IMG/VR virus record: IMGVR_UViG_3300037507_003964
Direction: 5' to 3' (one strand)
Length of the DNA: 64,000 nucleotides
DNA from: an uncultured virus (IMG/VR IMGVR_UViG_3300037507_003964)
Lineage: Duplodnaviria > Heunggongvirae > Uroviricota > Caudoviricetes
Shown: positions 17,249 through 19,166 of the stretch, piece after piece
Layout of the letters: every line of letters starts with the position of its first letter
Position numbering within the stretch: position 1 is the stretch's first letter
Notes under the pieces: generated by a model
Seen by the model: only the letters and a program-made list of their open reading frames with translations
What the model was told of the DNA's origin: nothing
Databases searched by the model: none
Program-made: the position numbers and the translations under genes

Positions 17249-17686
17249 TTAGAAAGACATTCTGACCCCTGCGGTAAAGATGCCGCCACGGAAATCAGTC
17301 TTTGATTGAATGTCCCAGTTGTAAGTATAGTCGACTACAGCTGAGACACCTTTGAAAAGAGGCACAGAAACTTCAACACCTGTATTACCCACGCCTCCAC
17401 TTTCTTTGCCAGCAACGTCGGTGCTAATATAACCCAATCCCGCATGGGGGGTAACACCAACTCGCCAGACTTTGAATTCCCTGCCAACAGATGCCCCAAT
17501 GGTAGCGTATTTGTCTAGCACACCACCAGCCTCTGCAGAAACCTTAAGGCCTGCAACTGAAGTGCCTGCTGACAACACATAAAGGGTATCATCTACATTA
17601 CGATCACGACCCACCGACAGGCCTACCTCAAGCGCGTTTGCACTAAAAGCGACTGCACACAACGAAGCAATAACAAGTTTCTTCAT
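17249..17686 (-). CDS. Outer-membrane beta-barrel protein (OmpA/Ail/Lom-like)
   Basis: Signal peptide MKKLVIASLCAVAFSANA, alternating amphipathic strands, terminal Phe (GVRMSF); AGGAG RBS. Confidence 0.8.
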   Translation of the reverse strand: MKKLVIASLCAVAFSANALEVGLSVGRDRNVDDTLYVLSAGTSVAGLKVSAEAGGVLDKYATIGASVGREFKVWRVGVTPHAGLGYISTDVAGKESGGVGNTGVEVSVPLFKGVSAVVDYTYNWDIQSKTDFRGGIFTAGVRMSF

Positions 17687-17747
17687 AAGATCTCCTTGAA
17701 TTAGACGGGTATTCTTTGCGCTGGGAACCCGCCGAAACCCCATAACT

Positions 17748-17755
17748 TATTTATA
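17748..17755 (-). promoter_or_regulatory. Late promoter TATAAATA for the OMP/lysis genes
   Basis: Exact consensus about 60 nt upstream of the OMP start. Confidence 0.75.
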
Positions 17756-17756
17756 G

Positions 17757-18066
17757 TGTCAGTTGATTCTGTTGCCAAGTCCAACTGACAAAACTCCGTC
17801 CTAGCTTAAGCTGCTAGGGCAAAACGCTCATCGTTTGCTGCGTTTATTTTGATTTACTTTTAACGACTCTCTGTGTCGGACTGTCTGTTTTCCTACTCTT
17901 TGCCCTGTCGAAACCAGGTCAGGCCCATCAAAAGCACTCTGGCGTCTCCTCTATCCAGATTTGATGTATACGTATCTAGAAAATACACATGGACGGTGCT
18001 TTTGGTGGACCTGGGCGGAATCGAACCGCCGTCCAGAACACCTTTTGGTCAACTTCATACAGTCAT
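17757..18066 (-). ncRNA. ssrA: Circularly permuted (two-piece) tmRNA
   Basis: Acceptor piece ends GGACGGCGGTTCGATTCCGCCCAGGTCCACCA (CCA at 18003); intervening loop 17927-18002; coding piece starts GGGCCTGACCTGGTTTCGAC at 17926; G3-U70 pair; tag ANDERFALAA* at 17838-17806. Confidence 0.93.
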
Positions 18067-18069
18067 AAT

Positions 18070-18141
18070 CACACTTTGTTTGGATTCGAACCTTGTTCTA
18101 GTATTGTCTATCTGCGCTTCCCACAGTGCTGACAAAGTGTG
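18070..18141 (-). ncRNA. Degenerate tRNA-like element
   Basis: 72 nt closed by a 10-bp stem CACACTTTGT/ACAAAGTGTG; contains D-arm-like CAGCACTGTGGGAAGCGCA and T-loop GGTTCGAATCC. Confidence 0.45.
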
Positions 18142-18149
18142 TTACTTAT

Positions 18150-19121
18150 TTATTTGACTTGCTTATTAATCATTTGCTCAACAGTCATACCGACCACATT
18201 GTGTCCTCCGAAGATGGTGCCCACTCGCCTATCAGCGACAATCTTAAGATTGTTTTTATAGACACTATCGGGTAGAGGAACATACTTAACCTCTCTTGAG
18301 ATTTTGGGTGCATTCGCCATATAGAATTCAACAAACCTACGCACCTCAGGCCTATCGAGTGACTTTACAGACACATAAATGAAGATAGGTCTGCTAAGAG
18401 GGTTGTAAGTTCCATCCATCACAGAAGTTTCACTAGGTGGTGTAGGTTGCCCAGAGGCGTTTACAATAGACACTGATTGAAGTTTGTCTTTATGCTCCGC
18501 ATAGTATGCAAACCCAAAGTAACCTAAGCTATTAACATCTCGACTTACACCTAACACAAGAACATTATCATCTTCTGATGCCGTGAAGTCACCCCTACTA
18601 GCTTTGCTACGACCGACGATTGCCTCTGTAAAGTAATCAAAAGTTCCTGAATCAGTTCCAGCACCGAACAACTTTAATGGTGCATTGGGCCAAGCGGGAT
18701 TTATTTGATTCCAATGAGTAACCTTTCCTTGTGCAGCGGGTTCCCAAATCCTTTTAAGTTGTGCAACAGTCATTGTTTTTGCCCAAGTGTTCTTGGGATG
18801 AATAACAACAGTCAATGCATCAAAGGCGACAGGAAGTTCTAGAAACTCTATGCCTGTTTGTTTACATGCTTGAATTTCTGATTCTGAAATAGGACGACTT
18901 GCATTCTGTACATCAATCTCACCCCTACAAAATTTCTTGAACCCGCCTCCTGTTCCCGATACACCCACGGTGACCTTAGTTTTTGTTGCCTTCTGATAAT
19001 CTTCTGCAATACCTTCTGTTATAGGAAACACGGTACTTGAACCGTCCACTCTTACAGTTTGAGCTTGTGCAACAGTTACAAATCCAACAGCAATCGCTAG
19101 TAAAAAATTATGAACTCGCAT
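18150..19121 (-). CDS. pstS: Periplasmic phosphate-binding protein PstS
   Basis: [41 protein letters not shown]; signal peptide; GGAGG RBS. Confidence 0.95.
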
Positions 19122-19166
19122 ATGACCTCCTTTTGTTAGTGTCATATTTTATCTATATATTTAACT

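Follow-up and report, generated by a model that had tools for sequence, protein, structure and literature searches.

What is a tmRNA gene split into two permuted pieces doing in a phage, and where does it come from? These questions are raised by a locus on the minus strand of a 64,000-nucleotide stretch of DNA from an uncultured virus (IMG/VR record IMGVR_UViG_3300037507_003964), which is referred to here as the window. The initial annotation of this locus proposed that the phage supplies its own ribosome-rescue RNA, and that the permuted form is either a marker of the host lineage or the outcome of an independent permutation in the phage.

A two-piece tmRNA in a phage is in itself of an already published kind, since Buchholz et al. 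(2022; PMC9004378, excerpted text) report such genes: ARAGORN assigned the two-piece form to 53 of 133 unique phage tmRNAs and to 17 of 47 related contigs, and a two-piece ssrA is described in the myophage Melnitz. Nawrocki et al. (2025; PMC11915505, excerpted text) give 79 curated phage tmRNAs and used 101 beta-type seeds. In the literature we found nothing on cargo in the spacer of phage tmRNA genes, nor on the structured RNA that adjoins the gene in the window (element X), which may be listed in two catalogues (PMC10690425, with 10,006 viral RNA candidates, and PMC5737381). Both the spacer as a slot and X go beyond the literature found, in which the nearest case is a single tRNA-Ala in a spacer (excerpts of PMC11915505).

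A two-piece tmRNA gene in a T4-like phage

Among the 46 window ORFs scanned, those flanking the tmRNA gene include homologs of T4-like baseplate, tail tube, gp32, gp59, gp33, gp41, UvsX and gp43 proteins. The gene is phage-encoded, as had been claimed, and judging from these homologies the window is part of the genome of a T4-like myophage. For gp33 and gp43, the nearest cultured phages are cyano- and pelagimyophages, at 50% identity or less, and the virus record closest to the window (G001), a fragment of 21 kb, does not include the tmRNA region. The position of the gene is conserved among viruses, with an exonuclease gene on one side and SleB-like and gp33 genes on the other; among 32 distinct loci with any neighbour match, these were found 28, 24 and 18 times, respectively.

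The features of the locus are collected in Table 1. On the minus strand, the CCA end at 18003 precedes the mature 5′ end at 17926, and the two are separated by an intervening segment (the spacer) that is closed by a 7-bp helix (18002-17996 with 17937-17931; an eighth pair would be a C-A mismatch). The 3′ strand of the acceptor stem occupies 18013-18007 and is followed by the discriminator A and an encoded CCA; the stem is of 7 bp and contains the alanine-specifying G3-U70 pair, and the T stem is of 5 bp. Helix 2 is formed across the two pieces, by 6 bp between 18064-18059 and 17884-17879. In all of these points (permuted order, 76-nt segment with its closing helix, acceptor stem, and helix 2), the structure first proposed is present in the window.

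The same holds under ARAGORN, which calls a permuted tmRNA at 17715-18095, and under the Rfam models. The tmRNA_permuted model (RF04321) matches over its full length with 126.8 bits (cut-off 47, E 2e-24), as does the beta_tmRNA model (RF01850) with 122 bits (cut-off 84, E 1.3e-36), while the standard, alpha and cyano tmRNA models give no listed match in the scan of the region. None of 100 shuffles of the region folds as well as the region itself (z -2.5). Helix 2 reaches at least 6 bp in 103 of 121 relatives, as against 337 of 605 mismatched pairings. The G3-U70 pair is found in the genes of all 121 distinct viral spacers considered and an encoded CCA in 120 of them, counts in which the letters of the 3′ strand are partly fixed by the search patterns. 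We conclude that this is a genuine and intact beta-type two-piece tmRNA gene in a T4-like phage.

Table 1. Features of the tmRNA locus, in order of transcription (window positions).
Feature	Position	Strand	Basis
PstS-like phosphate-binding protein gene, upstream neighbour	18150..19145	-	homology
T4 late-promoter-like octamer overlapping the pstS stop, 5 nt before X	18147..18154	-	one mismatch to consensus
Element X, 72-nt conserved structured RNA	18070..18141	-	10-bp closing stem, D-arm-like hairpin, hairpin with 5-nt loop, T-loop closed by 2 pairs
Acceptor piece: helix-2 strand, T arm, 3′ acceptor strand, discriminator A, encoded CCA	18003..18064	-	ARAGORN, Rfam, sequence; 5′ end putative
Intervening segment, 76 nt, 7-bp closing helix, 60-nt interior	17927..18002	-	sequence, folding, homolog searches
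Coding piece: 5′ acceptor strand with G3, D-loop equivalent, helix-2 partner, hairpins, tag frame	17758..17926	-	Rfam, folding; 3′ end putative
Hairpin in coding piece	17878-17864	-	sequence
Tag reading frame, most likely AANDERFALAA-stop	17806..17841	-	ARAGORN, UA context
Stop hairpin in coding piece	17818-17800	-	sequence
Terminal hairpin of coding piece	17789-17758	-	sequence
T4 late-promoter octamer immediately behind the terminal hairpin, oriented towards the following gene	17748..17755	-	consensus match
Second tmRNA-3′-hairpin-like module, leader of next gene	17705..17742	-	also in two other phages
Small outer-membrane beta-barrel-like protein gene, downstream neighbour (lead only)	17249..17686	-	sequence features

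The second 3′-hairpin-like module follows the late-promoter octamer and is part of the leader of the downstream gene. L023 is arranged in the same way and L048 has a similar copy, with five viral matches in total, and the module is either a relic of a 3′-end swap or a leader element. The product of the gene that follows has a signal-peptide-like start and beta-barrel features; its look-alike clusters are nearly all viral, and scans with Pfam and PHROG returned no match for it. This gene precedes holin-like and SleB-like genes.

Several other genes of the window may be recorded here. Upstream of the tmRNA, the interval 21657-18150 (-) holds PhoH-like, PstS-like and 2OG-Fe(II) oxygenase genes, which are host-metabolism genes (phosphate, iron), and a ferritin-like gene at 44915-44478 (-) is grouped with these. 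Genes for tRNA-Leu(UAA) and tRNA-Met(CAU) are located at 59117-58951 (-), directly upstream of the DNA polymerase gene, and a Tad3-like Thoeris inhibitor gene is located at 60573-60094 (-; PF25185, E 1e-32).

The tag and the role of the tmRNA

The tag frame begins with two tandem Ala codons, at 17841 and 17838, and its stop is at 17806. The tag had been read as ANDERFALAA from 17838; the frame, the stop and the ALAA end of that reading stand, while its start is probably one codon short. A UA at -5/-4, the context described before the resume codon of E. coli (PMC4236655, excerpted text), is found for the first Ala codon but not for the second, and relatives have it at the same spacing in 93 of 114 viral and 19 of 24 bacterial cases. 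Given that only 17841 has the context seen in relatives and in E. coli, it is more likely to be the resume codon, which would make the tag AANDERFALAA; this is also the reading of ARAGORN. The window frame combines this resume context with a hydrophobic ALAA end. As noted at the outset, the tag is of a type typical of Betaproteobacteria, and it is encoded by one-piece genes of the bacterial order compared below as well. Extra residues at the start of the tag recur in phage frames (AAND- and ANEV...ANEERF- in L048 and L291; 17841-17836 in the window), apparently through short duplications of the resume region.

The phage likely uses this RNA for ribosome rescue. No SmpB was found among the 60 window ORFs scanned with Pfam, the window being part of a genome, or in four near-complete records of related phages, and we therefore assume that SmpB would come from the host. 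That phages of this kind appear to bring no SmpB would also suit a tmRNA that competes with or replaces that of the host, by tying up SmpB, by surviving host-directed cleavage or by altering the set of tagged proteins. Buchholz et al. raise selective tagging as an option (PMC9004378, excerpted text), and the tag-less form of phage DS6A inhibits the host tmRNA (excerpts of PMC11915505 and PMC4131195). The tag frame in the window is intact, however, and its relatives keep ALAA-type ends under codon change, as normal tagging predicts; we regard competition as possible but unlikely, and rescue as the preferred reading. Since cultured phages carry the same type of gene (see below), the question of why phages carry a tmRNA becomes testable.

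The spacer as a slot for exchangeable content

A 20-nt pattern identified 59 viral loci, 56 of which were called permuted, and a second search pattern at least 120 viral loci. Permuted genes could be parsed in 169 of 244 viral records, yielding 133 distinct spacers with a median length of 81 nt and a maximum of 211 nt; 121 of these are of at least 45 nt. The 24 distinct spacers of bacterial beta-type genes are bare hairpins of 23-42 nt.

Among the 121 longer viral spacers, the closing helix is of at least 7 bp in 108 (4.3 expected), and all 11 of its in-register pairs exceed each of 500 partner shuffles. What the helix encloses is highly variable: the 121 interiors fall into 88 families, and the spacer family is shared by 7 of 49 phage pairs whose tmRNA cores are at least 90% alike. 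A complete mini-ORF is present in 23 of the 121 spacers, as against 2.9 expected when the conserved ends are kept. Rfam scans of 20 spacer loci gave no match besides tmRNA and tRNA. The contents of some spacers are found just upstream of the tmRNA in other phages (those of L021 in L020, L052 in L018, L058 in L026, and L334 in L286), and those of the L048 family also occur in the tRNA arrays of L224 and L238. Only these named cases are counted, as 17 spacers were scored as having a homolog elsewhere than in a spacer, several of them through matches to incomplete, unparsed spacers (L292, L278).

From these comparisons, we conclude that in phages the spacer probably constitutes a helix-clamped slot with exchangeable content. 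With such a slot, phage small RNAs and mini-genes can be looked for, and their ends defined exactly, simply by reading between the CCA and the mature 5′ end. Separate RNAs in a tmRNA spacer are likewise reported by Nawrocki, Petrov and Williams (2025; PMC11915505, excerpted text), who describe an intact tRNA-Ala in one spacer and a repeat in another; those cases are described there as unique and come from cellular assemblies, whereas spacer cargo is the rule in phages and includes mini-genes and RNAs other than tRNA.

The window's own spacer is less telling. Its closing helix is of 7 bp, as against a median of 11 bp, and its interior has no open frame of note and folds with a z of -0.76, with 47 of 200 shuffles folding as well. 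Two viral and one metagenome pattern scans recovered identical copies (L010, L036, L351) or chance matches (real loci in 2 of 2, 2 of 41 and 0 of 8 cases, respectively), and BLAST against the collected loci returned nothing besides identical copies below E 0.05. Given that it folds no better than shuffles and that no non-identical homolog was found, this particular spacer may be inert. By eye, it could form a pseudoknot.

Some spacer contents deserve separate mention. In seven spacers (L058, L038, L243, L277, L288, L293 and L270), an ORF has its stop beyond the mature 5′ end, and cutting would leave a nonstop message that the tmRNA itself would tag. Two families of hydrophobic peptides of 22-25 residues are encoded in spacers (L049, L282, L321, L316 and L279; L052, L261, L296, L307 and L361), with the ribosome-binding site and the stop built into the closing helix. 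Other stem-closed, conserved-looking elements occur upstream of the tmRNA (L014, L024 and L055; L025, L032 and L035), and those that were scanned have no Rfam match.

Element X

Upstream of the acceptor piece in the window lies X, whose core is identical at 60 of 60 positions to the spacer content of L033 and at 59 of 60 to that of L013. In L013, X is inside the spacer, with nothing upstream of the tmRNA, while the gene order is that of the window (pstS, tmRNA, holin-like, SleB-like, and gp33 at 84%). An 18-nt pattern places X in 62 viral loci, or 37 distinct segments: 26 copies have a tRNA gene on either side, 5 follow a tRNA gene and 1 precedes one; a tmRNA lies downstream of X in 10 loci, a tmRNA spacer encloses X in another 10, and the remaining 10 copies are elsewhere. 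The X-bearing spacers belong to both beta- and alpha-type tmRNA genes. A search from the 3′ half of X also gives 62 loci, and the 5′ 18-mer is unchanged in 53 of them; hence, the conservation of X is not a product of the search pattern.

An alignment of 32 copies has 93.9% of its cells paired, and both partners vary in 11 of the 17 pairs, a level that none of 500 shuffles attains; kinship among the sequences may, however, produce an excess over shuffles in the absence of selection. The closing stem accounts for nine of these 11 pairs; of the other two, one is a three-way covarying pair in the short hairpin and the other, which changes in a single sequence, flanks the T-loop. X runs in the order of a tRNA, with a D-like arm containing GG, a stunted middle arm and a canonical T-loop, and the GG of the D-loop and the T-loop motifs are nearly invariant. 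RNAalifold prefers a hairpin that excludes the T-loop, and both folds of the 3′ half are compatible with the data. As the core is nearly invariant, its proposed fold draws on one well-supported pair, one single-sequence pair and likeness of motifs.

We considered whether X belongs to a known class of RNA. ARAGORN makes no call in 18141-18070, and no tRNA or other Rfam family matches there at E up to 10. As a tRNA, X was rejected: its T stem is of 2 bp, its stem with the 5-nt loop of 2-4 bp, and its 10-bp closing stem lacks a CCA. YrlA, a Y RNA (Chen et al. 2014; PMC4201824, excerpted text), resembles X in that it is small, has both a D-like and a T-like arm without being a decoding tRNA, and is found in phages. 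In YrlA, the T arm precedes the D arm, the Ro60 motif GNCGAAN0-1G is present and the gene lies beside that of Ro60 (PMC4201824, excerpted text). In contrast, X has its arms in tRNA order, its 5′ strand lacks the motif and no Y RNA model matches it, and it was rejected as a Y RNA; no TROVE-type (Ro60) match was found among the ORFs scanned within 4 kb of X. It was also rejected as a riboswitch, given that no riboswitch model matches even weakly and that there is no glnA match at or beside the tmRNA gene.

X is absent from cultured phage records, and most tmRNA loci are without it. A covariance model of X, in which the closing stem was off by one column, recovered from 97 sources known X copies and weak tRNA-like matches only. 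Our best guess is that X is a tRNA-shaped decoy released by host tRNA processing. Because it is compact, nearly invariant and shared among alpha-type and beta-type phage genes and tRNA arrays, it can be made and tested directly.

Small stable RNAs are also found in the tRNA clusters of other phages, such as species 1 and 2 of T4 and the small RNAs of T5, and ride on tRNA-type processing. Palindromic elements in the two-piece ssrA of Rickettsia were reportedly described by Mao et al. in 2009. Both are leads, and X and the spacer cargo are likened to them by description, not by sequence.

Candidate promoters, RNA data and a working model

The gene is flanked by two octamers that, from their consensus, we take to be of the T4 late-promoter class. 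There are 13 members of this class in the window as against 6.5 expected by chance, and in 31 of 117 viral tmRNAs the hexamer core is found in the 30 nt that precede the start, as against 3 in a control interval. A scan for sigma-70 promoters found none near the start of the gene. Among assembled contigs of RNA run X1, one of 151 nt is identical to 17677-17827; in run X2, a 288-nt contig is identical over 18078-18135 with other flanks, and one further contig joins 17937 to 17996 with unknown letters between them. All three may stem from DNA or from other phages, and contigs of this kind cannot show RNA ends.

We propose the following model, which starts from what was observed: the gene anatomy, the family scores, the covariation of the helices, the turnover of the spacers and the occurrence of X in several settings. 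The tmRNA would be a member of the betaproteobacterial permutation lineage that has long resided in T4-like aquatic phages. A single precursor, probably transcribed from the late promoter at 18154-18147, would contain X, the acceptor piece, the spacer and the coding piece. The closing helix of the spacer would bring the two acceptor strands together, upon which host RNase P would cut at 17926 and 3′ tRNA processing would expose the CCA at 18003. Processing by RNase P and tRNase Z has been proposed for bacterial two-piece genes (PMC3985003, excerpted text). The two pieces would stay paired, be charged with alanine and bind host SmpB, and ribosomes stalled on broken mRNA would be freed by addition of a tag ending in ALAA. 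Cutting, charging and tagging of the phage tmRNA are modelled on what has been published for bacterial genes; use of the promoter, release of X, the job of X and any job of the window's own spacer are more conjectural parts of the scheme.

In the same model, both X and the spacer would come free as RNAs closed by a stem, and because the spacer would be cut out with fixed ends, it could be used as a slot for small RNAs and mini-genes. Phages would swap these among the slot, the upstream position and tRNA arrays, and X would need just its own closing stem and a processed precursor. As a best guess, X would present a tRNA-elbow-like surface that binds a tRNA-handling protein. As a whole (a working two-piece tmRNA, a spacer that serves as a swap slot, and X as a tRNA-shaped passenger), we consider this model likely to be right.

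A further-reaching reading would make the spacer a general expression slot, out of which the tRNA-processing enzymes of the host would free small RNAs and mini-mRNAs whose ends are fixed. X would then belong to a large arsenal released in this manner, and would mimic a tRNA elbow so as to lure defence nucleases that cut tRNAs, or other host proteins that bind them; this may be so, and at present we doubt it.

A more sparing reading is that the tmRNA is functional while the spacer contents and X are productless passengers trapped by recombination, with selection acting only on the closing helix. Contents do turn over fast, several of them also lie just upstream of the tmRNA in other phages, and the window spacer has neither a homolog nor excess folding. 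Nevertheless, across four settings the stem of X has been remade by compensatory changes around a nearly invariant core, the search from the 3′ half of X bears out this invariance, and mini-ORFs are eight times commoner than chance. We judge this reading quite improbable, and prefer a slot whose contents, X among them, would have uses of their own.

X might instead be a cis-acting processing or regulatory signal, for example one that sets where the acceptor piece begins or one that responds to a ligand. Its position 5 nt before the acceptor piece in the window, and at a similar distance in L197, L200, L216 and L241, would fit such a role, as would the two exclusive folds possible for its 3′ half and the riboswitch that sits at the Melnitz ssrA (PMC9004378, excerpted text). 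The presence of X in spacers, between tRNAs and away from any stable RNA gene, its absence from most tmRNA loci and the lack of even weak riboswitch matches make this highly unlikely, and we retain X as a passenger that would act after its release.

Relation to bacterial and other phage genes

The two-piece tmRNA of Betaproteobacteria was reportedly treated by Sharkady and Williams in 2004. With the bacterial beta type (RF01850, RF04321), the window gene shares the permuted order, the break point, the G3-U70 pair, helix 2, the reduced 3′ part, the type of tag and the closing helix. It differs in that it resides in a phage, encodes its CCA, has an extra Ala codon at the start of the tag, has a spacer of 76 nt rather than 23-42 nt, and is flanked by late-promoter-like octamers.

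Two-piece tmRNAs had been said to occur in alphaproteobacteria, some cyanobacteria and a small betaproteobacterial lineage (Dechloromonas). The betaproteobacterial lineage extends beyond Dechloromonas: beta-type genes were seen in Azonexus, Thauera, Accumulibacter, Propionivibrio and Georgfuchsia, as well as in a further group of Burkholderiales. In this second group (G067, G177, G178 and G196; loci L510-L513), the gene lies beside ispH in G067, and 4 of 61 genomes in the family of G067 carry a beta-type two-piece gene with no standard gene above the cut-off. In the three of the four that could be parsed, the cores are 73-77% identical to phage cores and 70-72% to those of Rhodocyclales. Judging from these identities, a phage-to-host replacement of the tmRNA is possible in this group. 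The boldest form of the expression-slot reading given above would have the two-piece genes of some Burkholderiales, namely this group, delivered by phage.

Could the permuted form mark the host lineage, as a recent capture from a Rhodocyclales-type host? The match to the beta model and the type of tag are as such a capture would have them, and among the best 120 PstS matches there is a named Betaproteobacteria bacterium, at 68%. However, the core of the window tmRNA is 68-71% identical to its best bacterial match and 89% to its best phage match, and a strong permuted match is present in just 4 of 151 genomes of the order, a tally that includes one unpublished genome (G028). Furthermore, beta-type genes are found in cultured phages recorded on unrelated hosts. 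BUCT-ZZ01, recorded on Synechococcus elongatus, scores 94.5 bits with the beta model, and Marzo and DLP6, both recorded on Stenotrophomonas maltophilia, score 94.6 and 103.7 bits, all above the cut-off, which was passed by none of 14 control genomes, S. elongatus included. The tmRNA of Stenotrophomonas is itself a one-piece gene. Given the low identity to bacterial genes and the presence of the beta type in cultured phages of unrelated hosts, the gene is a poor host marker; a recent capture is very unlikely, and host lineage should not be read from a phage tmRNA.

The other origin initially offered, an independent permutation in the phage, would agree with phage cores that are diverse and far from bacterial ones and with a phage monophyly that is not rejected (see below), and is extremely improbable given that phage genes break where those of Rhodocyclales do, likewise begin at helix 2, and have the same consensus for the helix that closes the spacer and the same reduced 3′ part, that the beta model fits from end to end, and that the window core is 66-71% identical to permuted genes as against 58-62% to one-piece genes of the same order. 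We retain descent within the betaproteobacterial permutation lineage.

In AU tests on 181 columns, neither phage monophyly (p 0.387) nor monophyly of the bacterial permuted genes (p 0.504) was rejected, so that the direction of transfer is not given by them. A quick tree placed the window inside a well-supported set of 47 phage rows, a set that the careful tree did not star. Three long-branch rows, the cyano-type rows, L509 (mis-parsed) and L512 (no parse) were left out of the tree.

The nearest described systems in phages are the ssrA genes of Melnitz (on Methylophilales) and of HTVC008M and Mosig (on Pelagibacter). Like the window, these are T4-like aquatic phages with a two-piece gene upstream of the late-transcription coactivator gene and with a second structured RNA adjoining it (PMC9004378, excerpted text). 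The Melnitz gene is of the alphaproteobacterial type and has a glutamine riboswitch, whereas that of the window is of the beta type and its neighbour belongs to no Rfam family; the excerpted passages of that report do not discuss spacer contents. Among cultured phages with beta-type genes, Marzo, DLP6 and BUCT-ZZ01 have cores that are 64-69% like that of the window and helix-closed spacers of 57, 31 and 111 nt, respectively; X was not found in them, and the gene is annotated in Marzo only.

It should also be noted that two contigs classed as viral, L005 and L050, have 64% G+C and carry genes that group with those of Rhodocyclales; these are probably host DNA or the edges of prophages. Unannotated two-piece tmRNA genes were located in four cultured phages, at L505:2330-2687 in BUCT-ZZ01 (ON615601.1), L507:704-931 in DLP6 (KU682439.2), L508:697-1026 in BUDD and L509:704-998 in QDWS359. 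Three of these four are overlapped by called hypothetical ORFs, and the spacer of QDWS359 looks tRNA-like by eye.
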